The notes beneath the pieces were generated by a model. It did not search any database and was not told the DNA's origin. It saw nothing but the letters and a program-made list of their open reading frames with translations. The position numbers and the translations under genes are program-made. From Naegleria gruberi (taxonomy: Eukaryota), in NCBI GenBank assembly GCA_000004985.1, contig GG738845.1: DNA of 64,000 nt; one strand, given 5' to 3'. Below, one piece after another: positions 29,510 through 59,986 of this stretch (its first letter is position 1; every line of letters starts with the position of its first letter).

Positions 29510-30343
29510 ATGTATTCAAATATGAAAATGGAAAATTATTTTGAACAAGTGTTAAAACAACAACACCTAGTTAACGATGATTTAATTGGCTTTTCTGAGT
29601 ACTTAGACCGATTACTAGAATTAAAAGATTCCTATGAACCGCCATCAATTAGGAAGGATATTGATCAATCACCACTTATGAATGTATTCGGTTTAAAACG
29701 TTCCACGGTGAAGCCTTCTTTTTTATTTTCTCATACTCCAGATATTAAACGACTTTCAGAATTTAAAAACTACTACGTTGAAAAAACATTCAACAGACAA
29801 CCTGCTTTCAAAGCTTCTTTTAGAAACAAGAACAGGGATATTAATAATGATCATTCATTTATTGAAAAGTTGGAATTGTTATTTGGCGAGAATGAAAAGT
29901 ATTTGGATAAATTGACTGATTTGAAAACTCTCTATCACATAAAGCAACTCATTTCAAAATATGAAAGGAAAAATCAATTACAAAGTAATGAGGATTTTAA
30001 TATTTATAATAGGAAGGACAATAGTTTCAATTCTTCTTCATTTTATCATCAACCAAACAAGTCACTCACTGAAGAGAGTTCAACTATTATTCATAGACTG
30101 ATTTTAACAAGTGAACTATTTTCGCCCTACGAATTTTCAAGTGATACTAACCAAAGTGCTGCTTTGAAATCATTTCAGATAGTTTTACATGGTAGCTCTA
30201 AAATATTGAAGAAGAGGCTATCCTCTCTACCAATGTATAATGATATTTATTCATCCCTCATTGAACAATGCGATAAAAGATTCTCAACACTGAGAAGGGA
30301 AATATTTCCTCAAGTAGGTTTTTTATTTTACAAATTGTTGTAA
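29510..30343 (+). CDS. Hypothetical protein, 277 aa as a stand-alone ORF; possibly the 5' exon of the downstream 1258-aa ORF (see findings)
   Basis: ORF with an A/T-rich leader. No recognisable domain. A GTAGGT donor at 30314 and a TAG acceptor at 30362-30364 would join it in frame to 30365..34177. Confidence 0.45.
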   Translation: MYSNMKMENYFEQVLKQQHLVNDDLIGFSEYLDRLLELKDSYEPPSIRKDIDQSPLMNVFGLKRSTVKPSFLFSHTPDIKRLSEFKNYYVEKTFNRQPAFKASFRNKNRDINNDHSFIEKLELLFGENEKYLDKLTDLKTLYHIKQLISKYERKNQLQSNEDFNIYNRKDNSFNSSSFYHQPNKSLTEESSTIIHRLILTSELFSPYEFSSDTNQSAALKSFQIVLHGSSKILKKRLSSLPMYNDIYSSLIEQCDKRFSTLRREIFPQVGFLFYKLL

Positions 30344-30400
30344 AAAACATGAAATCCTGATTAGCCACCTGACAGGTCAATCCCAACCAAGGAAATATCT

Positions 30401-33400
30401 ATGGAACAAATAGAATGGTTGAGTACAAAATATTTACCAAATATTTTCAGACATAGAGTTGATTGGGAAAATAGTCTCACAAAGAGATCAGAGCTGATTT
30501 ACAAACTCTTGTCCTATTTTTCAAAACAACCTGATCAAACAAACAAGGATTGGAGTTCTATAATTTGCTCCCAATACCCTGTTATGGTAAAAAGAAATGG
30601 GCAATATATGTTGATTTTCGGTATTCGTTGGAAGCCATTCACAAATATTAACAATACAATTCAATCTCTCAGGGAAAAGGGTTTATATGGTTTGGAATTT
30701 AATACAGAGCACTTCAACAACTTTCCATACTTTTTCAGGGATGGGAAAGAGTGTATTCCAACAGAAAGGCCAAATGTTACATCATCAACCCTTTTGAGAG
30801 ATTTTAAAAAACAATTGAAAACTCAAATAATAGACAGATCAGGAACAAACAAATACTCTTTTCCAAAACATCCACCATTCAGACATTGGGTATTCGATTT
30901 CTTCTTTAATCAGAGTATGTTAAGTAAGAATGATTTCCTAGCTGTTATGGAAGGAAGGAGATCCCTGCTGGAGATTATACTCAAGTATAGACCCGATCAA
31001 GTGTTGGAAAATCAAATTTATCAAACACTGATAACACAGATCGAGGAATGTTTGAAATCATCGAGAAGAGGTCATTCTTTTAAAAATACTATAGGCCACA
31101 GTGATTTGAAAAGTATACAGATTCCTGATTCCTCAAAATATCTCTCACTATTTCTTCCTTTTTACTTTCATATTGATGATAGTGAAATGTTAAGAGTTGA
31201 TCATTTATTTTCTATTAATTTGGAAGAATATATCAGATATTTTAGAAGAGTTTTAAGCGAATTGAGCGATTCTAATCTCTCCCAAGTGGGAATTTTGGAT
31301 ATATTCGAAATTAGAGAATCAATACAAGAAAACATAATGTACAACCACAAAAATCACATTAATAACTCTCTATTTAATGTTGTGGAAATTTCTAACCCTT
31401 CAAAAGGACATTATATCATTGACATTATTCCTAATCTAATTGAAACCATTCGCTCAAATGTGAAATTTTTAAGGTTGGATAATTTATATTGGAAACTCTA
31501 TTCGAGAGGACTTTACATCCCCGAAAATCCAATACTCCACCGAGATTTTATTCTACAAAGTATTAAAACCTTTCTGCATGATTTGAAAAATCGACAAGAT
31601 AAAACGGCAAGAAAATTCAATACCAAACAAGAGGACACTAATCTATTGCAAGATAACTTGACTCTAATGTCCAGATTTTTGAATTTGAAATGGAAGAGGC
31701 CTTTAGCATACGTTCAAGTTATGACCCCTTCTACAAGATTGGTCATTTCCAAATTGGTGAAAACCTATTTCCACCCCTTACACCAAGTTTTACAACACGA
31801 ACATGGCTCCCCAACTATTCCATCAAAATTGGTCAATACTATCATCCCATTCCAATCTAGAGTTAGCACTTTTGCGATAAAGCTGCTGGAAGTCACTCCT
31901 TCCCAGAACAACAATAATCAGGAAGACACTTTGGTAGATACTGTAAAGACCTTCATTGGAAAGTACAAACACGATGTACACAGATGCGAAAAGCAACTGT
32001 CAAATCGCTTGTTGTTTTTATTCTTGACTGAATGCGCTATGAGAAATATCATTACTACAGATAATGTTCTCCCCAAGTTAGCTCTCATATTTAAGAAACA
32101 TGTGCATGACAACGATACTTGTCTATTACCATGTGTTGATAGTATTGAAAGAGAAATAATTTCTCTGAAGAATTTTCCTAACAACTTGAAGAAGATTGAA
32201 AAATGCAATTTGAACACTTCTCATCTACATCCTTTGGTAATTTCCAATACACTCATGTGGAGAAATGACTTTACAGACATTTCAAATCTCAAGGCACTGA
32301 TATGGAATTCATTGAAAACTACCAACTATTTGATTAACCCTATCAAAGTTATAATAGCAAATTTTGAAAAAGAAAATACCTACATATGGAACAATATGTT
32401 AGAGCAAAGCTTTGATGTATTAGCTATTGAAAATATCAAACACCATGTTAGTAGTTTCTTTCCAATACGATCTAGAGAAGAAGAGGAAAAAGAATGGTCA
32501 GTTCACTACAAGAGATTACAAAAGTTAGGCATAGATTATTTACAATATTACCCATTCAAAGATTTACATGCAAAGGCATTGCTATCCCTTTCAAAAAAGT
32601 CATTAACCACCACTAAACTTGAAGAAAAGGAAGACATTATTGATATGTTTTTTCAACCCATTGATACCCTCAACTCTAATTCTAGACTCGTGTTGGATAA
32701 CTCAATTAATAGTTTGAGCTTGAAAAAATCAACTAGTTCTCTATATAATCGCCAATTTGGATTTCTTTATAATGATCTATCGGATATGAGAAAACCAAAC
32801 CAATTTCTAGATGATTGGGATTTGACACTAACGATTAAATGTATGTCTAGGAGAATACTTCGCAAGTTGAAACAAGCCACACAAAGAAGGGAAATTCTAG
32901 GAAGGATGGAAACCACTTTCAATATTTCTTCAGAGCTTTCTGCTGAGATATTGGAATTTTCTTCATTTATGATAGAATCAATGGATAAGCATTCCAATAA
33001 GGAATCCAAATTGTTGAAAAAATTTAAGAACATTACAAATGGTGGCAGTGACAAACAAAAATTTTCATCCCTACAAGAATTAATTGAACAAGTTTTAGAG
33101 TTTTGTAAAAAATATGAAATTTCCAGAATATCGCATGAAACAATAACAGACTCACCAGAGCAAATATTGTTACCAAGAGAGCAATCTTCTTATTGCCCTG
33201 CCACCACTGTCAGAAATTCTATCAACAATAATGAAATTTACTCTATAGTACCATTTATAGAAAGAACCCTAACTAGATCTAAAACAAAGGAAATAATATC
33301 TAATACTCTAACAAGATACGAAGAGGATGATTTATTGTTCCAAAACCAAATGAAAATGGTAGAATATTCTCCTTTCCTCCATTACTTTGAGAAAAAGATT

Positions 33401-34177
33401 CAAAATATTTTTGAAAATTCTTTTGAAAACTCGTTTTTTGAAAAAATAATTGATTTCTCTTACATTTTGTCTTATGGAAAGGTGAAGATTTTAAACTTCA
33501 ATCATTATGATGAGTCTTTCAACTCTGTTTTCATAACCGAAGCTGAAGCATCATATATGAACGAGCATGACAGACCTTATTTCTATAAATCATCAGACAC
33601 TGCATGGGATATTCTGAATAAGGATTTCCCTTCTCATGCCATTTGTGAGAATTTTGAAAAACTAGAAACATTAGCATCTGAAGGTGTTGACAGCCGCATG
33701 ATATTTGGTGGCTTTTGTGGAGGAGATTGTGAATTGCTGCTTTTTCATCCTGATTGTGAAGAGTTAAAAAATGGGAACACTGAAATGAGCTATCTGAAAG
33801 AGGCACTTACAAATCGAAGAATGGAACATTTTGGAGAGATTACTTGTGGATGGATGAATTTTGATGACCTAGTTGGTCCTGGTATTGAAATGACAAATGC
33901 AAAATGTGGGAATATTACTAGAGAAAATATTTGGATTTCCAATGAATGTTGTACATTCAATTATAATCCAAACAAGACTCTTGAAGAGAACAACAAGGAA
34001 CGACAAGCTAAACAGAAAGCAAATAAGGGTTTAAAGTATGTCAATCACCCCAAAAGATTTAATCAACTTGAATGTGGACATCACCACTTAAGAGAAACAA
34101 TACCTCTCTATGATTTAAAATTCTTGTTTTATTCGGCAACACCCTTCAATTTCAAAGAGTTTTATGATAATAAATAA
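30401..34177 (+). CDS. Large uncharacterised protein (1258 aa from the ATG at 30401; about 1538 aa if fused to the upstream exon); C-terminal Cys/His-rich region; no confident family assignment
   Basis: 3.8 kb uninterrupted ORF ending in TAA (34175-34177). The upstream in-frame sequence is open back to 30365. The ATG at 30401 lacks the A-rich leader seen at other starts. Confidence 0.6.
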   Translation: MEQIEWLSTKYLPNIFRHRVDWENSLTKRSELIYKLLSYFSKQPDQTNKDWSSIICSQYPVMVKRNGQYMLIFGIRWKPFTNINNTIQSLREKGLYGLEFNTEHFNNFPYFFRDGKECIPTERPNVTSSTLLRDFKKQLKTQIIDRSGTNKYSFPKHPPFRHWVFDFFFNQSMLSKNDFLAVMEGRRSLLEIILKYRPDQVLENQIYQTLITQIEECLKSSRRGHSFKNTIGHSDLKSIQIPDSSKYLSLFLPFYFHIDDSEMLRVDHLFSINLEEYIRYFRRVLSELSDSNLSQVGILDIFEIRESIQENIMYNHKNHINNSLFNVVEISNPSKGHYIIDIIPNLIETIRSNVKFLRLDNLYWKLYSRGLYIPENPILHRDFILQSIKTFLHDLKNRQDKTARKFNTKQEDTNLLQDNLTLMSRFLNLKWKRPLAYVQVMTPSTRLVISKLVKTYFHPLHQVLQHEHGSPTIPSKLVNTIIPFQSRVSTFAIKLLEVTPSQNNNNQEDTLVDTVKTFIGKYKHDVHRCEKQLSNRLLFLFLTECAMRNIITTDNVLPKLALIFKKHVHDNDTCLLPCVDSIEREIISLKNFPNNLKKIEKCNLNTSHLHPLVISNTLMWRNDFTDISNLKALIWNSLKTTNYLINPIKVIIANFEKENTYIWNNMLEQSFDVLAIENIKHHVSSFFPIRSREEEEKEWSVHYKRLQKLGIDYLQYYPFKDLHAKALLSLSKKSLTTTKLEEKEDIIDMFFQPIDTLNSNSRLVLDNSINSLSLKKSTSSLYNRQFGFLYNDLSDMRKPNQFLDDWDLTLTIKCMSRRILRKLKQATQRREILGRMETTFNISSELSAEILEFSSFMIESMDKHSNKESKLLKKFKNITNGGSDKQKFSSLQELIEQVLEFCKKYEISRISHETITDSPEQILLPREQSSYCPATTVRNSINNNEIYSIVPFIERTLTRSKTKEIISNTLTRYEEDDLLFQNQMKMVEYSPFLHYFEKKIQNIFENSFENSFFEKIIDFSYILSYGKVKILNFNHYDESFNSVFITEAEASYMNEHDRPYFYKSSDTAWDILNKDFPSHAICENFEKLETLASEGVDSRMIFGGFCGGDCELLLFHPDCEELKNGNTEMSYLKEALTNRRMEHFGEITCGWMNFDDLVGPGIEMTNAKCGNITRENIWISNECCTFNYNPNKTLEENNKERQAKQKANKGLKYVNHPKRFNQLECGHHHLRETIPLYDLKFLFYSATPFNFKEFYDNK

Positions 34178-34179
34178 AT

Positions 34180-36232
34180 TTAGAAAGTGTAATTGTTTGG
34201 ACAATCCAAAGCCCAAGGGAATTTGTCTTGCAAAGTTTTTGAGAAGAGTTTGGCTACTGGTACGTCAGTTCTCTTGCACCATGCAATTGTAATTCTAGGA
34301 TCACAATAGTTTGTTCTTGATGTTGTAAGAGAAACTGTCTTGTTTTCAATTTTCATCTTTTTTTCTTGTTTGAGATCATCAATCTTCTTCTTAATGGCCT
34401 CAATCTTGGAGGAAATAGATTCAGGGGTTTTTGGTAAAAGTGGTTGTGTTGGCTTTTTAGGTGGCTTGCTCTTCTTTGCAGAACCCAAATATGCAGCAAC
34501 AGATTTTCCTGCTTTTTTGGCTTTTTCAGCTAATTCTTTTTCTTGTTGCTTGTGTTCTTCCAACTTTTGTTCATATTCTTTCATTAATTTTTCATTTTCC
34601 TTATCCCATTTTTCTTTTACGTCTTCATATCCTTTCTTTTTAACTTCCTTTAATGCTTGTTGGAGTCTTTCCAAGTAGGTTTCTTGATCTTCAATTTTCT
34701 TTTCCATAGTTTCGACTGAAGTATCAAATGTCTTTGGTGCTGCACGTTGATGGTTACAGAGAATAGCAACTTGTCTGTTGGCAGAGTTGAAAATGCTTAC
34801 TTTCTCAGCAACACTCATGTCACTAGTAATTTCTCTTTCCAACTTTTTCAATTCTCTATCCAATGTAATAGATGCATTATAGGTACGGAAAACCTTGGCA
34901 GATAATTTTTCCATATAGGACTTGAGGTGATCATTGAGTTTGGATGGATTAATCTTGTGGAAGAGCATGTCAGATTTTTTCTTTCCTTCAATAAATCCCT
35001 TTACACATTTGTAAACCTCCTTCTCAACTTCTACAGTATTTTCATATCTGATTGAGTCTTTACCAAGGAAATCAAATTTGATAGATGAAGGAGCAACCAA
35101 GCTCACATGTTCAACTCTTAAACTGCAACAACCAACTGTGTCTGCCTCTTCTTCATCATCTTTTTCATTACCGACTCTCAAAGCAAGCTTATCTATAAAG
35201 TAGATGGCAACTCCCAATTGTCTATCACTTTCTTGCTTCTCCGTCCATTGTTGTTTGTAATCTTCTCTTATCTTTTCTATGCAATCCTTCAAGCTTCTTG
35301 CAGTTTGATATTTCAGATAATCATTCATTGCCTTCATACTTGATCCACTGGCAAATTGTACATACTTGTTCTTATTGTTGATTGCATCTTTAAAAGCAGC
35401 AACCCACAATACTGTATTGTTGGATACAACACCACCCCATTTATGTCCTGTTGGTGGAGGCGGAACATCTTCCAATCTTCCAATATTAATTGTGATATCT
35501 TCAGGTTGAATTCTCTTTTTCAACATACCCATTTTAGGATGGGTACCTCTACCTCTAAATAATCCAGGAGGTTCAATCTTGAACTGTTGAACCTTTTCCT
35601 TCCGTCCATCAACAAGAGCATACTTGTATGCGTCCTCAAACTTTGCTTTTAATTCCTTTTCCGCCTTCTTTTCTTCTGAAGTTCTGTTTAATTTGGTCTC
35701 CTTTTCTGTCAATAAATGTTCCCAAATTTTAGAAAAATCACACTTGGCAAGAGATTTGATTGTGTGATTTTTCCCGAGAAGTTCCTTCCAAGCAGCCCAA
35801 AAATTTTCATTAAATTGTTTCTTCTGTATGTAATCCGATTCCAACATGGAGGCGTACATTGTTGCTACTTCCTCTTGTTCTGGGTCAAGCTTTACAGGTT
35901 TTCCATCATAATAAACAGGAATGCTATGAGGTTGATAATCTGGTGGGAATAATACACCATTATGCTTGAGTGTTTGCCACTTTTGATCAGAGTTTAAAAT
36001 TGACTGGATAGTATCATCCGATTGTGCCCACCATTTGTAAACTCCATCATCTGGTTTAGTGTCCATTTCATCCTTAGATTCTTCCTTCTTTACTTTCTTT
36101 GTGTCTTTTTTAACTATTACTACCTTTTCTTCCTCCTCACTCTCACTATCATCATCCAAAATTCTTTTTCTTTTCTAAAGTTTTGTTGAACAATAAAAAC
36201 GCAACCCGCAAAAAAAAACTTACGTCGACCAT
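34180..36232 (-). CDS. TOP1: DNA topoisomerase I (eukaryotic type IB), 667 aa: complement(join(34180..36174,36224..36232)); 9-nt first exon ATGGTCGAC plus a 49-nt intron (GTAAGT..TTTAG)
   Basis: Core and catalytic regions are conserved (LFRGRGTHPKMG, SLRVEHV, NYCDPRITIAWCKR, C-terminal ..KFPWALD..F then TAA). The ORF-track start is a TTG. In-frame upstream sequence hits TAG unless the upstream micro-exon is spliced in, which gives MVDKRKRILDDDSESEEE.. Confidence 0.88.
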
Positions 36233-41929: not shown

Positions 41930-42970
41930 TTAAAGTTGTTCTGGCCTTGGATGTGATTCCTTACCAAAGTTTGGTGTCACTCTGACAAATTCTGCCTTTC
42001 TTTGCAATTCTTTAATATCTTTGGCACCTCCATAAGTGAGGGCACTTCTCAATGAACCACAGAAATTATCAATAACATCTTGAGCAGAACCTGTACATTT
42101 GGCATGGAATGAAACACCTTCTGGAACAGTACCTTTCTTCAAACCTCCATAGAAATCATCTTGGAAATCCTTACTGGCCTGACCTCTATACTTGACAAGA
42201 GTAATTTCTTGACCGTTTTCTAAAGTTTTCTTTGATTTTGGAGCAGCACTTTCCATTGTCTTTGCAAAAATACTTCCCATCATGACTGTACTAGCACCAG
42301 CAGCTAAAGCAAGAACCATATCTCTTTCAAAAACAATACCGCCATCAGCAATAATTGGAACACGGAGTTTACGAGCTAATTCAGCACAATTCTTGATGGC
42401 AGAAAATTGTGGTAATCCGAAACCTGTCTTGATTCTTGTAGTACAAGCAGCTCCACAACCAACACCAACTTTAACTGCATCAGCACCAGCTGTGACAAGA
42501 TCTTGATAGCCCATTGGTGTACAAACATTACCAGCAATGATTTCCTTGTGTGGTAATTGTTTCTTTAAATTTCTAATAAATGTACACATAGCATCACTGT
42601 GACCATGAGCAATATCAATAACTACACCTTTAGCTCCCAATTCCAACAATTTTACAGTTGATTCCATATCATTGAGACCACAAGAAACAAAACAATTATT
42701 TTCATATTTTTTCACCCATTCAGATTGTTTTTCAAATGAAGTGAAACGATGGAATAATGGAATACCTCCATTAGCAATCAAAACATCAGCCAATTCATCA
42801 CCAATAACTGTATCCATATTAGCAGCAAGGAGTGGCATTCCAATCTTTGTATTCTTTGTCAACCAAGTATCTAATGAAGGGTGCAAACGTGAAGGAACGT
42901 TATTATATTGAGGAACAAGTGTAACGTCATCAAATGTCAAACACACTTCTTGGTGAATATTGCTCATCAT
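41930..42970 (-). CDS. GMPR: GMP reductase (IMPDH/GMPR family without CBS domains), 346 aa
   Basis: [38 protein letters not shown]. Length and C-terminus match GMPR. TAA stop. A-rich leader. Confidence 0.85.
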
Positions 42971-43374: not shown

Positions 43375-46300
43375 ATGATCAAGAAATTGGGCGTAAAAGC
43401 TCAAAAATTTTCTCTCATACTTCACCCTGCATTTAAACACGCAACTGATCAACATAAAACAAAACTTGTTGAAGAATCGGAAGGTCATGTTGTTCATCAT
43501 GTTATTAGTGAAGATTGTCTTGATGGAGAGTCTAAAGTTAATAGTGAAGAATTAATTGTTAGTGATTTGATTGATGAAGATATTGATGAAGATGATAAAA
43601 AAGAGATTGATGAAAATTTACTTCAAAAAGCATTATACTATGCTCTATTAACTTTACATTTACCGATTCATATGGTTCCTGAAAGAATTCAAGATGTTCC
43701 CCTCACACTCTCACAATTACAAGGTGAAGTTTTAAAATTATTTGAACCCAAGTTAACTCTTGAAGAGTTGCAAAAAACTTGGAATGAAATATATATTCAG
43801 AAATCAGATAATGGCTCTATTGATTTAATTGTAGATTTTCTATTGTTGAGAAAGTATATTTTTGAAAACGAACATCAATTACCATATACAACCTCTGATT
43901 TTGTTAGTGTGGAGAAGTATCAGTTTTGGAGACATAACAAGATTAAGGAAATTGACCTCATGTTGGATAGTATTAAAACTGCTAGAAAGAAGGAATTCAA
44001 TTGCAAGTTGGAATTTGAATTTGATAATGTTATCCTAAACAATTCTGAGTCTCTTGTTAAGAAAACTGAGTGCGATTTGATGTATCATTTGGATACAACT
44101 GATCCTGAGAGTTCCATTAAAATTAACAATGATACCAAAACTAAAACTGTATATGAATCAAAACCTGTAGAAACCAAGAAGAAGGATGCTGCTTTTAAAC
44201 CAATCTTTAAAGAACTTGTTAAATTGTAAGTGTTACCTCTAATGATGTGTTCTAACTTCTTCAAATATGTAGATCTCTAGCAAATAGAGATCAAGAGGTA
44301 AAATTTTCTATCATCTTGTCAAAATATGCAGGTTTGAAAAAGAAGGAAATTGGTCACGTTATTATTCCAGTTACCAGTTTAATTGAAAAACTTTTCCCAA
44401 AAACAAATTGGGGAAACATTGATCAACCGATTCGAGCTGATTTTCCAATTGTTTTTAATAATTCAACTATTGGTGATATTCAACTCAAAATTACAAGAGG
44501 AAATTATCAATACTTCCCAGCAAATCAAAATAATTGGACTACATATGTTTCCAAGAGGCTTGACTTTATCAAGAATAATTTAAATACATTTGATATTCCA
44601 GATGTTTACAAGATCAAAAAAGTTCTATTAAGAAGAGCATTTAATTCGCCAAAGACAGACCTTAACTTAGTGACTTATGTTCAAAAATGGATTCTTGGAG
44701 AGATTGACCTCTTATTTGGTATGTCTACCCATAATGCAGAAATTAGTTTGTTAGATGTACTTTCAAGAAATATTCGTTTTTTAATTTCATTTGCTGATCA
44801 ATTTTCAAAAAGTTATCAAACTGCTACAAAAATAATTAGTGATAATATTAAACAAACCAACAAGATCAACCAAATTATGGACAAGACTGAAAAGAAAGTT
44901 GTTGATCTCTTAATGCATTTCAAGGAGAGATTCCCAAGAAACAAACCAGATGGTGCTTTAGAAAATGTTGTTAAACTATATGACACCATTATTTCTGTAC
45001 ACAAAAAACATTCATTTGAAGAATTTTTAGATATTCTTAAAGACCTTTTGAAAAAGTCACTCGAAAATGATTATTTGCTTATTAAGAAGCAACAATTAGA
45101 GGTTTTCAAAACAGAAGAGTTGAATGCCAAGGTGTTAATTGGAATGATTCCAGGGATTGTATACAAATTGGATAGGTAAGTTGACATGTCATTTAAAATT
45201 TCAAAATATTTTCAAAAACCTTAATTGACCAAACAACTTAACATCACTTTCAAAGACTCTATGATTATTCTGATACACTCCCACAGGATGTTAAATATGA
45301 AAGCATGAACATGATCTATTATGAATTGTTCAAGAAGGATTTCCAACAAGTTGCTCAATCAGGAGGGTTCTCTGGTTATCAGATGTTGCATTTTTGCACT
45401 AAGATTAAAGATTTAGCTGAAGTGATTGGAAACTCCAACGATTTGAGTCAAAAAAAATCCGAATTGATTGACATCGCTGAAGTTTCTAAAGGCTATGAAG
45501 AAAAATTCATTGAAGAATTAGCGGCTAAACTCGGTGATTGCGCAGATCAATCTATTAAGATTGACAATTGGGTACCAGTTAATCAAGACGTGAAACACTC
45601 AACAAGTGTTGTTGATTTTTACACTGCAGCTAACGAGATTTGGAACTATGTTTCTGAATTGGAGTTTTTCAATGAACATTTATTGCAAATGTTCACAGAA
45701 ATGTTGGCAAAGGTCACTCTCGATTATGCAAATAAGGTTAAAAATATTGCAGTACAAATTATTACTAGAAATACAAAAGAGAAATCAAGTACATCCCCAA
45801 CAACTGAAAAGACCAAAAAATCCAAAACAATCAACCTCTTTAGTAGAAATGAAGTTAAAAACGCGGAGCAAGAGAGTGATTTAATTTATTCTGAGATTGA
45901 ATTGACCTCAGATTTTTTAATAATGCTTAATAATATTAGCGTTTCGAAGCAAGAAATGGAAGAAATTATCGATAGTATTATTGAAAAACAAAAGGACTTG
46001 AAAGATAGTGAAGAAGTCACTAGACAAGTAGAAAGAAACGAGGAAGAAGATTTGGACTTGGAAAATGAAGAAGATTTGAAAAAGACCTCAGATATGATTG
46101 GTGAGCATCAAATGAGTGCTCTTGAAAAATCCAGAAAAAATATTGACCTTATTATTGAATCATTGATTGCTATCATCTCCTCCAGTTTCAGAGTTCCAAT
46201 TAGAAGTACACTACAAAATATTTTTAACAAAACTAAAACCTTGGTTGAAAAAAGTTCACCATCGAACAGACCCCTCTCCAAAGATACTACTCTCAAAATT

Positions 46301-48280
46301 GTGCAATCAGAAATTGATTCAATTTTGAGTAGTGAATTACTTGAGTCTATTCTTACACCTGCCTTTACAATTCTATCCGAAAGTTGCTATGATCAATTAT
46401 TTAAATTAATCTTGGAAAATATTTTGGATATTACAAACTCAGAAATGATTAATTCATTTATTATTCCAACTGATAATTATGATATTGAATCTGATAAGGA
46501 CAAATTCCTCACTGTTGAACAATTATTTGTACTTGAAAGCGTTCACACAACCTTTGGAATTTATCTTTGTGGTAATGATGATGATCCTGATACTGGATTG
46601 AATGAACAAGTATTTGAGTCCAAATCACGTCTCCTACTCAGATTAATTTCCCTCTATCAATGCACAACACCCAAGTTGATTAACATTTACCAAAAGTACA
46701 CCAAGTATCCTAATTTGAACTTTTCAAACATTTTGAAAAAGCATCACATATTACTTTTACTCAAATCTAAGGGTGATAAAGAAGCTCTATCATTCTACAA
46801 AATTCATCAAAAAGAGGCAGAACATCAACGTATTATTCAAGTCTTCAATTTGAAACCAGTTGATGGAGCAGGAGATGAAGATGAAAGCAATGACAGGTAT
46901 GAAGAGTTGTTGGTGACTGTGAGTGGTATTTATGAATTAAGTCCGTATGATGTTCATGTTACTGAACTCAGACTTTTACTAGAATCTAAATGTTCTAGAA
47001 AGACTAAAGAATTTTTATTGAGAGATGTCATTAATGCCAAATTGAGTAAACATTTACTCTCCACAAAGGGTGTTCAATTTTCAATCAAGGGTGATGAAAA
47101 GAGAGTTTACATTCTAAATTTTACTGATTCAGAATTGAGAACCAAATTCCTAAATGTATTTTACCAACAATTGAAGAATATTGGTAATGAACAACCTCAG
47201 CTTCAAGAATTGAAATCCCCAACAACAAGTGGAAGTTCTGTTAAAATCCTTGACTCTAATTTGTTTGATCAAGCTGCAGATGCCTTAAAACTCAAGTTTA
47301 AAATCAAAAACTCATCATGTAAACTTTTAAAAAGAATTATTGCTCAAGCTGCCTACAAGGTCGATAATACCAAAGTTTTTGCGGATGGTGAAGTATTATT
47401 ATTCAATTATGGTCTTTGTTTCCATTGTGGTTCAGATGGTGTTAAAGGAACTTTCTCTCTAAAACTCAACTTTTCAATTGTAAAACAAATTGAAGGAAAG
47501 AAGAGAAAGGACAATTCCATGAGAATCAAAATTGATCTGCAAGGAGGCTATTCTCTGTCTTTTTATAATGTTGAATTTTTTGAGAATTGTCTCTCTGATA
47601 TTATCAATGCATTTGAACAATGGTCCAAGGATTCAACAATTACACCTCTACCAAAATCAGATGATAAGAATTATTTCATTTCAAAATTCAAATTGAAATG
47701 TATTGGAGAGAGTGATGAATGCTTAGATAGAAAGTTGAGCTGTGGATCAGCACTTACAGAAAATGGAACATTGTTTATTGGAAACTATCATTGTTGTTAT
47801 GAATCCAATTCTCTCCTTCCAAATAACGGAGACATACAAAAGGAAGAGCAAATCTTAATCCCTGTTGCATTTATCAAGGATATTGAGAAGTATGTTCATT
47901 CAAAATTATTGGCTCTCCGTTTATTGAGTGGCCATATTGTTTGTTTCATGTTCCATGATGAAAAGAGTTTAGAAATCGCCTTCCAAAGAATCACTGTCAA
48001 GGTACAATGTATCACTAAGCCAAAAATATCCATATTTGGATCTTCAAACAGTGAAAATAATCTTTATATTTCAAATATTTTAAAAAATGAAAAGATAGAT
48101 TTGGATTCTTGCGATCAGAGAATATTGAATAGTGCTATATTGACAAAACAAGCTCAAGAAGCACCAATCCAAACTTTAGGTAATTTGGGAAGCGGTGTCA
48201 AACAAGCAAGTCAAAGTGGTGGAGTTTTCCATTATTTTACCAATATTGGAAAGAATATTTTCGGAAATAAGAAGAAATAA
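43375..48280 (+). CDS. Large protein of about 1590 aa with two C-terminal PH-GRAM-like modules (..EVLLFNYGLCFHCGS.. and ..GTLFIGNYHCCYESN..): join(43375..44225,44273..45175,45256..48280); introns of 47 nt (GTAAGT..GTAG) and about 80 nt (GTAAGT..AAAG; alternative acceptor at 45303)
   Basis: The three ORFs 43375..44229, 44316..45179 and 45305..48280 each end on a GTAAGT that overlaps the stop codon. Their frames reopen immediately after a YAG with no intervening stops. GRAM-like G-L--NYRL-F-S motifs. Family not identified. Confidence 0.55.
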
Positions 48281-48663: not shown

Positions 48664-50722
48664 ATGATTAACTTTGTGTATCAGTTGATTATAATATTAC
48701 TCCTGCCAGGTATTCTAATCAATAGTACTTGTTGTATTTCTGGAATACCACAAGAAGAAGATACACCAATTAAAATACTAAAGGATGGAGAAATAATTCC
48801 ATTCAATAGAACCATGTTAGTTCTCATCGATCAAAGTAGCACTCCAAGAGAAGAAACTCTAGATATTGTGAGTGATGGTATTTCGTTAACATTCTCAATT
48901 CTCTCTGTAATTGGATCCTTAGCTGTGTTTGGAATGTTTTTCTTTGAACATGCTTGGGTGTTTGGTAGAGAAAAGGAACAGAAAGCAAATTATAGACGTT
49001 CTCTCAAAAGAAATACCATCAAGGATCTGGATATTCTGCAACAACACCATGTTGAATATATGAAAAAGAAGAGGCAAGTAATTTCTCAGAAAAAGAGAGA
49101 GTTTGTGCGGAGAATGATGTTATCATTGATGGTGTCAGATGTAATTTGTTCATTGAGTAGGATTATGTTTGTTGTTTGGTGGTGGATTTGTACTCAAGCA
49201 GCTCCTAATGAAATGTTCAATCATTTTACAGGTCCAGTTCAAAATTTTGGAACCAATTCATCTCAAATTATTACGAATGGATCCATTTCTTTGACTAGTT
49301 TTATTTCACCTCCTCTTTCGAAAGTCATTACAATTCATTTCAATACCAATGGAAAGGAAAAGAATAATGGGAAGGGAAAGGATAAAAAACCAGTTATTGA
49401 TAAAAAGAATGGAGGAAGTAAGAATGGTTCCATAATTGAGTATTTGTCTGATCCGTTTGGAGAAACAAACAAGTTCAACAAAAAGCAAATGGCCTTAATT
49501 GAACCTCCATCTTTCTATTCAGTGTTCAGGATTGATGGGAATGATTCCATGAATGGGACAATGTTTTATTCCTATTTTGAAATGAAAACAGCACCTCAAT
49601 TGTTTTTAGGATTTCTTGCCAATGTTAATTATGCATCATGCCTGTCAACTGCTTCCTGGGTTGCAATAGTGGCCTTTTCTGTTTTAGCAACAACGAGGCA
49701 AGTCAGTTGGGATGACGAAATGCAAGAGGAAAGTGATGACGAATCAAAGAAGGTGAAAATATTATGTGTTGAAACTGTTTTTCATTCATTTTCATGGGGA
49801 ATAGCCTTTTTTTCGTTTTTCATTATTTTTCTTCTTAGAGTAGTTTCTCACACAACACCAACAATAGATAAGACAATAATTAACATCATTACCAGTATAC
49901 TCTATATTATGTGGGCCCTGTTTTTTACCCTGGTATGTTATTAATTTCATTCAAATTAACAAAAAACAGATAATAACTATTCTTATTATAATATTAGGTT
50001 GTATTTGGAGAAAAATAGGAATACACTTCAACAAGTCTCAATTGATATTCCCAAAATTGGAGACAAGAAAAAGACAGCGTTCAGTAATACTAAAATTAAG
50101 CATGCTCCTTCTCCCATTCGCTTTTTGTGGAATTTTTGAAGTCATATTTTGGTATTACAATGCTGTCACAACTCTAACTCAACAAGATGATGTTCTCTTT
50201 GTTGTGATATTTTACAACTTTCTTTACAATGTTATCGTTCCATTGAAAGGCTTTCTTTTGGCTATTGCCTTCTTATTGGGTTCACCAGAAGTGAGATCAT
50301 GTCTCAAATGCTGTTGTTTTTGTAATAGTTTTGCTACTAGTGATTATAGCTCTAGCACAGAATCCCTTCTAGATGGTCATATTGAGGAAGCAAATAGCAT
50401 CACATCTGTTTTTGAAAATGTTAGGACAAGACTCCGAACGCCCAGCTCAGAATATGCAGGATTATACTATTCCAACTCGGCAACCACGCCAAGAACACCA
50501 CAGTTCCCAATTAGTGATTCAGAAGAGCCTAAATCCTCAGCTCACTACACAACACTGGACAGAGTGAAAGCAACCTATGCCACTATCTCAACAGAATCCA
50601 TTGAGGGAACTCTTATCACTTTTGGCCGTCTCTACACTGGTGCATCAACAAGAACCAATCAACAACAAGTGCTCCAAACTAATAGCTCTGAAATATCTGA
50701 AGACATTCATATTAATATTTGA
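48664..50722 (+). CDS. Seven-transmembrane receptor (GPCR-like; TM7 PLKGFLLAIAFLLGSPEVR resembles family-B/cAMP-receptor-like LQGF..A..Y.F.N.EVQ) with signal peptide, about 673 aa: join(48664..49932,49970..50722); 37-nt intron GTATGT..AACAG
   Basis: N-terminal hydrophobic signal, seven predicted TM helices, a CCCF motif after TM7. ORFs 48664..49944 and 50042..50722 join in frame across the 37-nt intron, and the frame is open from 49970. Confidence 0.6.
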
Positions 50723-50752
50723 TTTAAAATATTGTCAATTTATTAAAGCAAA

Positions 50753-53079
50753 TTAAAAGTTTTCCAAATCCAATTCCTTAAGGGTATCCTTCTTATTGGA
50801 TGATGAAGCATTGCTTGATGATTTGGTCTTCTTCTTGGATGGTTCCGTTCGCTTAGAAGATGGGGCACTTGTGGATTCAGTTGACTCATCTCCTCTCTTT
50901 CTCTTAAGTTTAGTCTCTTCCATTTCTTTGAGAGCAGATTCTTCTTCATCCTCTTCTTCCTCGAAGGTAACCTTTTCGTCCAATTTGGCAGCAACTCTTT
51001 CCAAAACTTCTCTGTCTTGTTTCTTCTTTTCGTTTGCATAGTACTTGTCGAGAGGTGTTTCAGTATCCTTTAAGAATTCTATAACCTTGTCAAATTCAAG
51101 TGGAGTGAAATTAATCTTGGATTTGGATTCGTTTACAAAAATGATATTGTCATTCACATGCTTAACAAGATTAGTTATTTGCTTGGAGATACCAAAATGG
51201 AGTGTTTCAGTATGTGATTTAACATACTTCTTCAAAAAGTTTGTAATTGGATAGGAAAGTTCTGGGAAGGCAACAGACTTACTATGATTAGCCAAGTGAT
51301 CCAAAAGTAAGAAACAACAATCATCAATGATTCTTTGATGGAATTCTCTAGATTTGAGTTCCTCAGGTACAGCCTTGAGTTTGAATTCGAAATATAATGG
51401 TTGTGGTTTTTGATTTTGTTTTGGAGTGTTAATAGCTTGTTTCAATTGTAAAATTTCAAAAACTGTTTGCGAAATTGGAATAAAACTCTTGTCACAATCT
51501 CTCGAAAGTTGGTTGAGCATGGTCAAAATCTTAACTTTGAATGGATAATGTTTGGCAGAATTAGTTAAACCAATAGCAGCCATAGCAATTTGTGTGACTG
51601 GGTAGAGAAGTGCTGAAATATTTTCTTGCTTGTAATAGGCACATATAACCTTTGACCAGGCATCCAAACAGTGGAAGAATTTCCAATTATAACATAAAGC
51701 ATAACCATTTTGAACTGTTGAGTCCATAGCTCTTCTCACCGTTATAGCAAGTTCTCTAATGTATGTAAAGGCATGATGGTAAGTACTAGTAAAGTTGATT
51801 GTTGACAATTCTACAAGACAATTCTTCAAAAATTCAATTTGATGGAATGTAGATGGGTTATACCCTTTAGAATTTCTCAAAAGAGTATAGTAAATACCCT
51901 TAATACATAATTCTAGGAATGGATATGGATAAATAACAGCCATACTATTGATAATAATAAATGCTCTAACTCTAACATCTTCATTGGAATGACCTAACAA
52001 GTTGAGCATGAGTCTCAAAATTTTCTTTGGTTGAGCTTCAAATAAACCATAGAATGGAACGAGTCTTACGAAATAGTGCAAAACATAAATCAATAATTTT
52101 TCATCCAAAGTCTTTTCCATCATTTGGTGGAACGCATTAATAAATGTTGAGAGAGCTAATTTAATTTGTTTCCATCCAGAATGTTTAGCTGGTAATTTGT
52201 TTCTATTATTAATATAGTTAATGAAACTATTTCCTAAAAAAATTACTTACGATCCTTGTTCATATTTTGTCAAAATAGTTGCCAAATCTCCCAAACACTT
52301 AACACAAGCCATTGTAACTCTTGCAAATGTTGCAACATCAGGAACAACATATGGAATTTCTGGTTCTTTTTCCTTCTTTTTTGATTCTTGATTTTCTCCT
52401 TCCTTCTTCAAACCTGATCTGAAACATAAAATCAAGTGGAATAATGGTTGCACAGCGTTAGAAGTTTTAATCTTTTTAACCCAACGAGCAATCAATGCTT
52501 TTGTTACTTTAATTCTATTACCAAATTCTTTAGTATCCTTTTCATCTTCTTCTTGTATTTCACCTGCAATTCTTTCAAAGTATTGTTCATCTTCTTCGTC
52601 TACTTCTTGTTGATCAGTAACATCATCAGTCATTTCATCATCCTCTTCCTTATCACCTCCGTGGAAAACTTCCTCATCAGAATCATCAGAAACACTAGCA
52701 ATCAATTGTTGAATTTCTTCTTCTTCTTCCTTTGTTGTTTTTCCTCCTTCTTGTTTAAGTTTTTCAAGGAATTCCTCAACTTCATGTTTAGTTATACTAT
52801 TTAATGTTAAAATCATCATGATTGTTTCAGTTGTACATACCCATTATCATTTTTTGTTGATTCCTTCTTATCCTTCTTCTTAGATATCTTCAAATAATGT
52901 TGGTCAAGTTGTTGTTCTTCTTGTTCGGAATCGGAAAGGTCATCTCTTTTCAGCTTTTCATTTCTAATAGTTTCTCTAATATACTTTTGTTGACCAATCT
53001 TTTGAGTTCTTATCTTGGCTTTAACCAAACTTTTATTGGATTTGTATTTTTTATCACTCTTTGTTTGCTTTTTACCCAT
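50753..53079 (-). CDS. NOC2L: Nucleolar complex protein 2 (NOC2/NOC2L), about 752 aa: complement(join(50753..52226,52251..52796,52841..53079)); introns of 44 nt (GTATGT..AATAG) and a candidate 24-nt micro-intron (GTAAGT..AATAG)
   Basis: The N-terminus MGKKQTKSDKKYKSNKSL.. resembles yeast Noc2 (MGKVSKSTKKFQSKHL..). ..HEVEEFLEKLKQE.. matches DPEFYKFLQEND. HAFTYIRELAITVRRAM matches HAFLYIRQLAIHLRNAM. LCYNWKFFHCLDAW matches SVYNWQYVHCLFLW. The sequence upstream of the ORF-track start at 52123 is conserved NOC2 sequence in the same frame, interrupted by a single TAA. Confidence 0.75.
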
Positions 53080-56600: not shown

Positions 56601-56903
56601 ACAATGCATAAGAAACAAACAGTCTATATCCATCCATCCTCTTGTCTATTCACTGGAAATGATAAGGATAAGGTTGTAACAATTATTGGTGATCCAAAGT
56701 TGGCAGCAAAAGAACAAAAAGATCCACCAAAATGGGTTGTCTTCTTTGAGCTAGTTCTCACTACCCAAGAATTTATGAGACAAGTTATTGAGATTGAACC
56801 AACTTGGTTGCTAGAGATTGCTCCTCACTTATATAATGGTAAAATTACTGTTAAGGAGCATAAGATGCCAAAAACTCTTGGAAAATCAAGTCGTAATAAA
56901 TAA
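53685..56903 (+). CDS. DHX16: Pre-mRNA-splicing factor ATP-dependent RNA helicase DHX16/PRP2 (DEAH box), about 1072 aa, intronless
   Basis: [12 protein letters not shown].. at the N-terminus. [29 protein letters not shown] matches human DHX16 [60 protein letters not shown]. The C-terminus ..[27 protein letters not shown].. is conserved. The real ATG at 53685 follows aaaaa, and the track start is a TTG. Confidence 0.88.
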   Translation: [1072 protein letters not shown]

Positions 56904-56934
56904 TTCTTTTACGAAATTGGTGTTATTTACAAGT

Positions 56935-57564
56935 TTACAGACGATTAATCTCTAATTGTTCCCACATATACTCTACAACCTCTTCACGATTCATACCACT
57001 CAGGTCATATGTTTTTGTTTCTTCCGTACCACAAATTAATGCCACAGTATTTGCATTCTCTAAATCGAATATCAGTGGGGCAATATGTTCGTAAAGTTGA
57101 ACTGAAAATTCTGTTGATTTCTGATAATCTTCAATATCTCTCTTTAGTTGTGCTTCCTTTTGTTCTAATTCTTCCAATTCACTTTCTATCAAGGCTGAAT
57201 TATGTGAATAATTTTTAATATCTTTATCAATTTGGTCAATACTGAATTGAATTTCTTGGCATTCTTTTTTCAGTATGGACATTCTCTTCTCATGCTCTTG
57301 TGTGATGAGTGTCTTGTTTTGACATGATTTTTCTAAACTTTTTAATCTAAATAACAGATTACTCATTACGTCTTTAAATTTTAATTCTTGCGATTCGGAA
57401 TACTTTTGAATAGTTTCTTGTGCTTGTGATATATTCCGAACTCGTGCAAAATTACTTTCCATGTTTAACGCATCCAATAAATTTGTTGTCATTTGATCCA
57501 ACGTAAGAAGATCTATTTCTGGGTCTTTCTTCAAATCATCCAAGTTGAGTCCTTTGTGTTGCAT
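56935..57564 (-). CDS. Kinetochore protein, probably SPC24 (NDC80 complex): coiled-coil N-terminal half plus C-terminal globular domain, 209 aa
   Basis: The C-terminal VQLYEHIAPLIFDLEN..(about 25 aa)..EVVEYMWEQLE resembles human SPC24 AQLYHQVSKIEWDYE..(about 25 aa)..ISDYLWSLVD. Size and architecture fit. A-rich leader. Confidence 0.35.
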   Translation of the reverse strand: MQHKGLNLDDLKKDPEIDLLTLDQMTTNLLDALNMESNFARVRNISQAQETIQKYSESQELKFKDVMSNLLFRLKSLEKSCQNKTLITQEHEKRMSILKKECQEIQFSIDQIDKDIKNYSHNSALIESELEELEQKEAQLKRDIEDYQKSTEFSVQLYEHIAPLIFDLENANTVALICGTEETKTYDLSGMNREEVVEYMWEQLEINRL

Positions 57565-57709: not shown

Positions 57710-59869
57710 ATGATTTTTTCGGATTTGCCCTTCGAGGTTAAATGTCATATTTTTTCATTTCTGGATTATTTGGAATTTATTTTGCAAAGAGGATTATGCT
57801 TGAATAGTAATTTTTATAGATTACTAAATTCTTCTATCGGAACACCAAGAAAGCTTATTTTTGGATGTGCAAATAAACCAATTCACAGAAGAAATGAATT
57901 GGATCAAAATGAGGAAGAGGATATTTGTATTACAAATAACACACCAATATTTGAGAGAATAACAAAAGTACTCATTCCAAAATTCATCATACCAGTGTCT
58001 TTTCATAAGAGTATCACATACCTAGATGTACATCATATCAGTTCAAAGCTTACCATGAAACAAACTGTTGACTTGTGTAAAGAATTCCCGAATCTAACTC
58101 AAGTTCATTTTGTAAATCATTTCCCTACATTAGCAAGACTCAAGTCCTTTATCTTGGAGTCTCTTTTTCCTAGTCATTGCCCACATTTGAGAGTAATTGA
58201 TATTACTTCTGGAGAATTAAATGCATCTCAACACCAAAGTATGAATGGAGGATCTGTAAAGCAACAAGTCACACCTATTCAGAGATTAATGTCTGAAGAG
58301 GACTTTCCTGTAATTGTTGATTATGCTCTTTTAGTTTTACCTGACACTGCCTCTACAAAAAGTGCTTCTGGTGCTGGAGGGGGAGGAAGTGGTGGAAGTC
58401 GCTATTTGAAAATGAATGATGAACAAACTCTGTCATTTTTAAGACAATTAATTGAAAAATATCATGTACCAATCAATACATGCATACAGGGGAAATATAC
58501 TTTCTTATCAGGTGCCTGTCATAATGGGCATTTCGAATGTATCAAATATTTGTTGAATTTTGGAGCAAATAGCAGAAAGAATTTATCAAAATCGACTGAT
58601 AGTTTAAGTAGAAGCATCTCTTACGATTTAATTAGTTATGCTGAAAGTGCAGAAAAAGAAATTTTACTTTTGAAATCTCAGCCAAATAGAGCTATGTATT
58701 TTTCATTTAAAAGAAATTTCTGCATTGCTCCTCTTATAATAAGTTTAAAGGAGAATATTATTAATTTTTTATTGGAACGCCAGGTATCTTTATGCGAATA
58801 TCAAATTGGTTCTATTATTCAACACTTAAGAAGATCATTAGCAAACATTTCACTGGTTACTCCTGAGCTTAAATTAAAAATTTTAGAAAAGAAAAAGAAA
58901 CAAGAACAACTGTTTTATAATTCATTAAGGAAGGTTAATGCATTTTTATTCAATTTTGATGATTTGGATAGAGAGACTGGCTGTTCTCCAGTGCACCAAA
59001 TTTTAGATTATTCAAGTTTAAGATTGATTTTTGACAAGATGGGAATTTATCCAATATCTGCCTCTACGGAATCTCTAACAGATGAGGTTATCGATATTGT
59101 AAACAGAAAGAATATTTATACTGGAGCAACAATCATACACTTGTTGTGTGCCTCTTCTTCTTCAATAAGCAAGATGTACCAACCAACTTCAATAACTGAA
59201 CTCATATCCAGTCTGAGTAGACCAGAGAGCTCAAATCTTACAGTTCTTGATAGTGAGGTTTTCCACAATATTCAACACTTGCATAATGCATTGGGGGCCA
59301 AATTGGATATTTATGATATGAATGGTATGATGCCAATTCATTTATGTATTGATATGGAGAGGTATGAGTTGGCTAGAGAGTGGCTAAAATGGAAACCATC
59401 ACATGCACTCTTTCTTACTAAATCTACCAATGAATCAATATTACACATACTAACAGAGCACCTTTTCCAATCCCTTTTCGAGTTTAGTGCCTCAAGTAGT
59501 GAGGATGAGGGTTACAGAAGATGTATGAACAATAATTTTATTCTTGAATCACCTGCTTCACCTTCTTCAGATATTTCAATCCCTCTCAAAGATAGGTTAG
59601 AGGATAGCCTGTTAGAGAAACGAAGAATGGAGATGGTAGAAAAAGAACGAGAGAACAAGGTTACTAGAATTATTTCACTTTTCAAAGTTATTCTAACTGG
59701 GTTGGATTTGACTAATCGCGAGAAACAAGAGCTTATTAGTGTAGAAAATGATCTTGGGAGCAATGTTTTGGATATGATTGAATCATCTATTGAGGAAAAT
59801 AGCTATGAGGAAGATGATGAATTCTTTAGACAACACATTTACCAGCTGAAACAATTATTAGAATATTAA
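57710..59869 (+). CDS. F-box protein with ankyrin repeats, 719 aa
   Basis: N-terminal F-box-like LPFEVKCHIFSFLDY. Ankyrin-like ..GACHNGHFECIKYLLNFGAN.. plus further repeats. TAA stop. Confidence 0.6.
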   Translation: MIFSDLPFEVKCHIFSFLDYLEFILQRGLCLNSNFYRLLNSSIGTPRKLIFGCANKPIHRRNELDQNEEEDICITNNTPIFERITKVLIPKFIIPVSFHKSITYLDVHHISSKLTMKQTVDLCKEFPNLTQVHFVNHFPTLARLKSFILESLFPSHCPHLRVIDITSGELNASQHQSMNGGSVKQQVTPIQRLMSEEDFPVIVDYALLVLPDTASTKSASGAGGGGSGGSRYLKMNDEQTLSFLRQLIEKYHVPINTCIQGKYTFLSGACHNGHFECIKYLLNFGANSRKNLSKSTDSLSRSISYDLISYAESAEKEILLLKSQPNRAMYFSFKRNFCIAPLIISLKENIINFLLERQVSLCEYQIGSIIQHLRRSLANISLVTPELKLKILEKKKKQEQLFYNSLRKVNAFLFNFDDLDRETGCSPVHQILDYSSLRLIFDKMGIYPISASTESLTDEVIDIVNRKNIYTGATIIHLLCASSSSISKMYQPTSITELISSLSRPESSNLTVLDSEVFHNIQHLHNALGAKLDIYDMNGMMPIHLCIDMERYELAREWLKWKPSHALFLTKSTNESILHILTEHLFQSLFEFSASSSEDEGYRRCMNNNFILESPASPSSDISIPLKDRLEDSLLEKRRMEMVEKERENKVTRIISLFKVILTGLDLTNREKQELISVENDLGSNVLDMIESSIEENSYEEDDEFFRQHIYQLKQLLEY

Positions 59870-59888
59870 AGAATATTGAAACAATTAT

Positions 59889-59948
59889 TATTCCGAATTA
59901 TTGTTGTATTTGTGTCATATTACTTAGTATTCCGAATAATTGTTGTAT
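59889..59948. repeat. 21-nt direct repeat TATTCCGAAT(T/A)ATTGTTGTAT (59889..59909 and 59928..59948) between the F-box gene stop and the HEAT gene start
   Basis: Seen in sequence, one mismatch, 39-nt offset. It lies in the presumptive 5' leader or promoter of the downstream gene. The ORF track translates through it (FRIIVV twice) from a TTG. Confidence 0.6.
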
Positions 59949-59986
59949 GTTTTGTATTGAAAAACCGAAAACATACAACAAAAAAA

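Follow-up and report, generated by a model that had tools for sequence, protein, structure and literature searches.

A predicted type IB DNA topoisomerase gene (TOP1) of Naegleria gruberi and a large gene on the opposite strand form a genuine tail-to-tail protein-coding pair, with only 2 nt between their stop codons. The pair was found in a 64,000-nt stretch of contig GG738845.1 (assembly GCA_000004985.1), referred to below as the window. We consider it likely that this is a convergent pair of a compact genome, conserved in Naegleria, whose two 3' ends are formed through signals that do not depend on intergenic DNA of their own and whose mRNAs overlap as a result. An overlap of the 3' UTRs is predicted from the positions of AATAAA hexamers around the junction and from the N. 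gruberi polyadenylation biology given in a published report (PMC11529991), and is very probable. The window opens with 28,103 N, and the actual bases span positions 28104-64000 with a G+C content of ~33%. Neither Rfam nor ARAGORN detected any RNA gene across the window. The genome of N. gruberi is about 41 Mb.

The large-gene ORF (30401..34177, plus strand) closes with the codons GAT AAT AAA TAA, in which the TAA occupies positions 34175-34177, while the TOP1 ORF (36159..34180, minus strand) closes with AAT TAC ACT TTC TAA, in which the TAA occupies positions 34182..34180. The dinucleotide AT at 34178..34179, assigned to neither strand, is thus the entire spacer between the stop codons. Re-reading of the coordinates from the sequence agreed with the positions of both TAA codons and the 2-nt separation given in the initial annotation. 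That annotation regarded the junction as a second case of zero-length spacing in which the 3' UTRs must overlap. The spacing of 2 nt holds here, but the other case, if the tandem "6-nt" junction at 59869/59876 was meant, is an artefact of ORF extension, and this junction was rejected because the real ATG is located at 59987 and leaves a gap of 117 nt. A structured bidirectional terminator at the TOP1 junction was also rejected, since no stable RNA hairpin was detected there (z-scores of -0.43 and +0.19 relative to shuffled sequences).

As judged from its domain content, the protein encoded on the minus strand is a eukaryotic DNA topoisomerase of type IB, and it is complete. A Pfam search with the 659-aa ORF identified Topoisom_I_N (4.9e-90), Topoisom_I (3.4e-95), and Topo_C_assoc (2.7e-29), and all three type IB topoisomerase domains are complete. 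Specifically, Topo_C_assoc was matched over 1-70 of its 70 positions and finishes at residue 659 of 659. In the conserved motif SRTNYCDPRITIAWCK, a tyrosine stands where the catalytic residue is expected, and Asn617 and Tyr618 in ...TSRTNYCDPRI... are invariant in all five sequences compared. We take Tyr618 to be the catalytic residue by equivalence to Tyr723 of the human enzyme. The gene starts with a 9-nt exon 1 (ATG GTC GAC, 36224..36232, minus strand), followed by a 49-nt intron (GTAAGT...TTTAG, 36175..36223, minus strand) and exon 2 (34180..36174, minus strand), which includes the stop codon. Splicing gives a protein of 667 aa and restores the N-terminus of the homologues (KRKR...DDDSESEEEE). 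N. gruberi TOP1 is 80% identical to that of N. lovaniensis. Compared with eukaryotic type IB topoisomerases in general, all domains are full length and the protein has nothing unusual. Its charged region at the N-terminus is short, a trait shared with other Naegleria.

The convergent partner had been described as a 1258-aa ORF. The convergence with TOP1 was borne out, but this ORF represents only the 3' exon of a two-exon gene encoding 1538 aa. Homologues of the large protein are ~130-430 aa longer at the N-terminus than the 1258-aa ORF, and an upstream ORF on the plus strand (29510..30343) corresponds to roughly residues 1-275 of P0002, the orthologue in N. lovaniensis (E value of 7e-33). Exon 1 accordingly spans 29510..30313 on the plus strand (268 codons) and ends at CAA/GTAGGT. 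A 51-nt phase 0 intron (GTAGGT...ATTAG, 30314..30364, plus strand) joins the two ORFs, and exon 2 (30365..34177, plus strand) contains the 1258-aa ORF and the stop codon. The splice product, ...REIFPQ/PPDRSIPTKEISMEQIEWL, fits the FPPPP...SKDYSxDQIEWL pattern of the homologues. The large protein shares 35-39% identity over its full length with those of N. fowleri, N. lovaniensis, and Willaertia magna. No Pfam domain was detected in the protein or in five relatives scanned, a sequence search of the PDB gave no match (best E value of 0.09), and an AlphaFold2 model of its conserved C-terminal 299 aa had a pLDDT of 32. A phmmer search against 1.84 billion representative proteins retrieved 10 relatives only, and almost all copies of the gene known so far appear to come from Naegleria and Willaertia, both Heterolobosea.

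Each of the two proteins stops at a conserved C-terminus, as had been claimed from the sequence. In a five-sequence alignment, the final phenylalanine of N. gruberi TOP1 falls in the same column as those of the four homologues from N. lovaniensis, N. fowleri, W. magna, and a metagenomic Naegleria-like organism. The C-terminus of the large protein lies within 3 residues of the ends in N. fowleri, N. lovaniensis, and Willaertia. Comparison of the orthologous loci showed that the tail-to-tail junction itself recurs with gaps of 1-40 nt. The orthologues in N. lovaniensis carry adjacent locus tags (C9374_000579/000580) and are convergent with a gap of 40 nt; the corresponding gap is 25 nt in the N. 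fowleri assembly and 1 nt in L002, a metagenome contig of the Naegleria-like organism. By TOP1 identity, the L002 organism branches outside the group of N. gruberi, N. fowleri, and N. lovaniensis. In Willaertia the two genes face each other on one contig but are ~20 kb apart, and their adjacency is therefore a feature of Naegleria. The pair would appear to be adjacent and convergent throughout the genus, with a spacer that has probably contracted to 1-2 nt in two of the lineages.

[quoted passage not shown] It also describes dual-use stops, in which AAUAAA overlaps the stop codon (11-13% of stop codons) and the median UTR is 22 nt. At the present junction, two overlapping AATAAA hexamers (34169-34174 and 34173-34178, together 34169..34178 on the plus strand) are located at the end of the large gene, and the second of them spans the stop codon in the register AA-TAA-A, as in a dual-use stop. 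The first hexamer ends 3 nt short of the final base of the stop codon and the second 1 nt beyond it. With such a dual-use signal, cleavage is expected inside the TOP1 coding region of the opposite strand, probably ~12-25 nt past the stop codon and opposite the last 4-8 codons of TOP1. A GU/U-rich stretch, GUGUAAUUGUUUGG, is present downstream of this expected cleavage region.

The signal arrangement of TOP1 is different. The 120 nt ahead of its stop codon contain neither AATAAA nor ATTAAA on the minus strand, and the transcript must therefore read on. The first AATAAA past the stop (34128..34133, minus strand), at +47, is predicted to serve as the TOP1 poly(A) signal. This hexamer is antisense to the partner codons TTT TAT T (Phe-Tyr-Ser), and a CA dinucleotide follows 17 nt downstream (34112-34111). 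Reading on to this hexamer would give a TOP1 3' UTR of ~62-72 nt that is wholly antisense to the last ~23 codons of the partner. Each gene would thus probably form its 3' end without private intergenic DNA, and the predicted complementarity between the two mRNAs is ~70-90 nt. No UGUA upstream element was visible by eye near either predicted poly(A) site. As an antisense AATAAA occurs by chance in ~9% of 70-nt segments of coding sequence, the +47 hexamer may be fortuitous. A different site could then serve, such as the alternative hexamer CATAAA at +13. The layout of L002 is the same as that of N. gruberi, with AATAAA across the stop codon of the large gene and a TOP1 AATAAA at +42 within the partner coding sequence, where it arises from codons T TTA TT in contrast to TTT TAT T. 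In N. lovaniensis (+26) and N. fowleri (+11), the TOP1 AATAAA lies within the spacer and the hexamer in the coding sequence is absent. Among the true gene ends in the window, AATAAA or ATTAAA overlaps or abuts the stop codon at 7 of ~12.

The distribution of AATAAA in the window is strongly asymmetric between the strands. In ~30.9 kb of coding sequence, the hexamer was observed once in the sense direction (~52 expected from base composition) and 40 times in the antisense direction (~34 expected), indicating that it has been purged from the sense strand only. Since the antisense copies are retained, a polymerase entering a convergent neighbour encounters one roughly once per 0.8 kb. Such an asymmetry offers a simple explanation for the tolerance of tight convergent packing.

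Close spacing of convergent genes is common in these genomes. The stop-to-stop gaps of 13 convergent pairs, taken from this window and four related loci (N. lovaniensis, N. fowleri, L002, and Willaertia), were 1, 2, 16, 20, 25, 30, 30, 31, 40, 64, 347, 634, and 1760 nt. As 9 of the 13 are 40 nt or shorter, the gap of 2 nt is extreme but ordinary; it represents the low tail of normal gene packing in N. gruberi rather than an anomaly or a chance oddity. From the UTR lengths and dual-use figures in the published report (PMC11529991), most convergent pairs with a gap below ~40 nt should have overlapping 3' ends. A search for Naegleria-specific literature on convergent gene overlap retrieved none.

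The overlap might also be functional, in that a 3' mRNA duplex or transcriptional collision would couple TOP1 to the expression of its neighbour. Conceivable routes are protection by the mRNA duplex, RNAi, or transcriptional interference, and the partner codons would be under selection for the TOP1 poly(A) signal. Several observations point in this direction. Four Naegleria-type genomes have kept the pair, and in yeasts, convergent pairs separated by short gaps give rise to mRNA duplexes and are conserved preferentially (PMC6993858). The antisense AATAAA occupies nearly the same place in both lineages with a 1-2-nt spacer, where it is provided by different codons, and it is missing from that place where the spacer carries AATAAA. 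In addition, a stretch of 20 nt located 28 nt before the stop codon is the longest one without a difference among the four TOP1 genes. However, the second-longest identical run is almost as long (17 nt), the comparison comprises four genomes only, and the hexamer has the ~9% chance rate per 70 nt given above. Close packing of convergent genes is a general trait of these genomes, and the Willaertia genes are separated by ~20 kb. In the last 40 codons of TOP1, 37% of conserved degenerate codons are identical in all four species, compared with a gene average of 28%, which is no clear excess of synonymous conservation that would indicate a dual coding and UTR constraint at the TOP1 3' end. We therefore regard a functional overlap as unlikely. 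Slightly less probable still is its more specific form, in which, in the Naegleria lineages that have lost the spacer, codon choice has made the neighbour coding sequence a carrier of the antisense TOP1 poly(A) signal and the ~70-90 nt of complementarity constitutes a conserved regulatory link on TOP1 expression.

The transcripts would not overlap at all if one or both mRNAs were cleaved at the stop codon or within 2 nt of it, leaving a zero-length 3' UTR or a stop codon completed by the poly(A) tail. The very short 3' UTRs of N. gruberi (the medians of 39 nt, and 22 nt at dual-use stops, given in PMC11529991) lean towards such an arrangement, but the same source places the signal ~15-20 nt upstream of cleavage, and the large-gene hexamers end too close to the stop codon, and TOP1 lacks a hexamer before its own, for this to be more than a very remote prospect. 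The least probable reading, to which we give almost no weight, is that the junction is only apparent, produced by a dead gene, a mis-assembly, or a shift of frame: the window opens with a long run of N, and no N. gruberi entry for either TOP1 or the large protein was found among the matches in a 5.8-billion-protein database, but both ORFs stop at homologous C-termini, canonical short introns in both genes restore conserved N-terminal sequence, and three independent assemblies of relatives show the same tail-to-tail junction, which excludes the frameshift and mis-assembly considered in the initial annotation and upholds its view that the stops are not sequencing artefacts.

The convergent pair, with its predicted overlap, fits systems that have already been described. 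The dual-use stop/poly(A) arrangement described in N. gruberi and in Giardia (Genome Res 2024, PMC11529991) is matched by the large gene, which has the AA-UAA-A register and a predicted ultrashort 3' UTR. In the available part of that report, convergent neighbours are not among the topics. The present locus differs from the system as described there in that the implied cleavage falls within the coding sequence of another gene, and in that the partner, TOP1, is not of the dual-use type. It adds a clear example of a dual-use signal implying cleavage inside a neighbouring coding sequence. Overlapping transcription in microsporidia and nucleomorphs (Williams et al., 2005, Corradi et al., 2008, both cited by PMC3629993) likewise involves intergenic DNA too short for UTRs and transcripts that enter their neighbours. 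Unlike these, N. gruberi is free-living and does not have the reduced genome of a parasite or endosymbiont, and at this locus canonical AAUAAA signals seem to have been kept in suitable positions, with no apparent loss of termination. With the convergent mRNA-duplex pairs of budding yeast (Gilet et al., 2019, PMC6993858), the Naegleria pair shares a short gap, conserved convergence, and potential 3' complementarity. The 2-nt gap is at the very short end compared with the yeast pairs, and the overlap would therefore necessarily reach coding sequence, but duplex formation and regulation in Naegleria are potential only.

The TOP1/large-gene locus leaves current understanding unchanged, and its value is mainly practical. 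For annotation, it demonstrates that a coding sequence of N. gruberi can end 2 nt from one on the opposite strand, and gene finders that forbid an overlap between UTR and coding sequence will lose genes. It also provides a clean test locus for convergent termination in a free-living protist, with canonical AAUAAA and no intergenic DNA. Elsewhere in the window, an ORF on the minus strand (41933-42970) is matched end to end, without a difference, by N. gruberi XP_002683466.1 (GMP reductase), encoded on a 1.56-Mb scaffold, and another ORF clusters with N. gruberi XP_002683140.1. The DNA is therefore nuclear and comes from strain NEG-M or one nearly identical to it. A search for transcript-derived contigs with the ATG-start and TTG-start TOP1 ORFs and with the GMP reductase locus returned nothing usable. 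The other contigs identical to N. gruberi are genomic only and come from a metagenome run.

The AATAAA hexamer, the poly(A) signal in N. gruberi, is strongly asymmetric between the strands in the coding sequence of the window. In the approximately 30.9 kb of coding ORFs within 28104-64000, it was found once on the sense strand against an expectation of about 52, and 40 times on the antisense strand against an expectation of about 34. Two further convergent pairs in the window are closely spaced: an unknown gene and the Noc2-family gene (50722-50753, gap of 30 nt), and a DEAH helicase gene and an unknown gene (56903-56935, gap of 31 nt). The poly(A) hexamers of both pairs lie at or beside the stop codons or within the spacer, making it probable that their 3' ends overlap also. 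A tandem gap of 6 nt between ORFs 57710-59869 and 59876-62773 was rejected because it was due to a TTG-extended ORF. The ATG of the DNAAF5-like gene downstream of 59869 is located at 59987, and the true tandem gap is therefore 117 nt.

Around the convergent stop codons of TOP1 and the large gene, the predicted 3' UTR of TOP1 opens with AUUUAUUUAUUAU (window 34166-34179, minus strand). It includes UUAUUUAUU, a nonamer that resembles an AU-rich element and is present because this stretch is antisense to the double AATAAA of the large gene (34169-34174 and 34173-34178). The genome in which this nonamer is found is A+T-rich.

The large gene (1538 aa, plus strand) is a single gene whose two exons, ORFs 29510-30343 and 30401-34177, are separated by a 51-nt intron. 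Its protein family is tiny, with 10 relatives among 1.84 billion representative proteins. No Pfam domain was found in the family, and AlphaFold2 gave no usable model for the conserved C-terminal domain. In Willaertia magna, TOP1 and the large gene (retrieved as loci L004, 10001-12156, and L005, 10001-15163) are convergent on one contig, JBEGDK010000064.1, with about 20 kb and other genes between them. The close pairing must therefore be either a gain in the Naegleria lineage or a loss in Willaertia. No N. gruberi protein was present among the database matches for TOP1 (34180-36232, minus strand) or the large gene (29510-34177, plus strand), and the top matches were an N. lovaniensis protein (82%) for TOP1 and an N. 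fowleri protein (35%) for the large gene. Neighbouring genes in the window do have N. gruberi database entries; the gene set publicly available for N. gruberi may lack both TOP1 and the large gene.

Positions 1-28103 of the window are N throughout, which could represent padding, masking or a scaffold gap, and the first real base, 28104, falls well inside a coiled-coil ORF. ORFs 43375-44229, 44316-45179, and 45305-48280 look like exons of one plus-strand candidate gene (43375-48280). The first two each terminate at G|GTAAGT, and the 284-aa piece clusters with the N. gruberi protein XP_002683140.1 (1869 aa). G|GTAAGT also closes ORF 52247-52819 (minus strand, in window 52124-52819). This ORF may not be a gene of its own but an exon lying upstream in the Noc2-family gene at 50753-52123.
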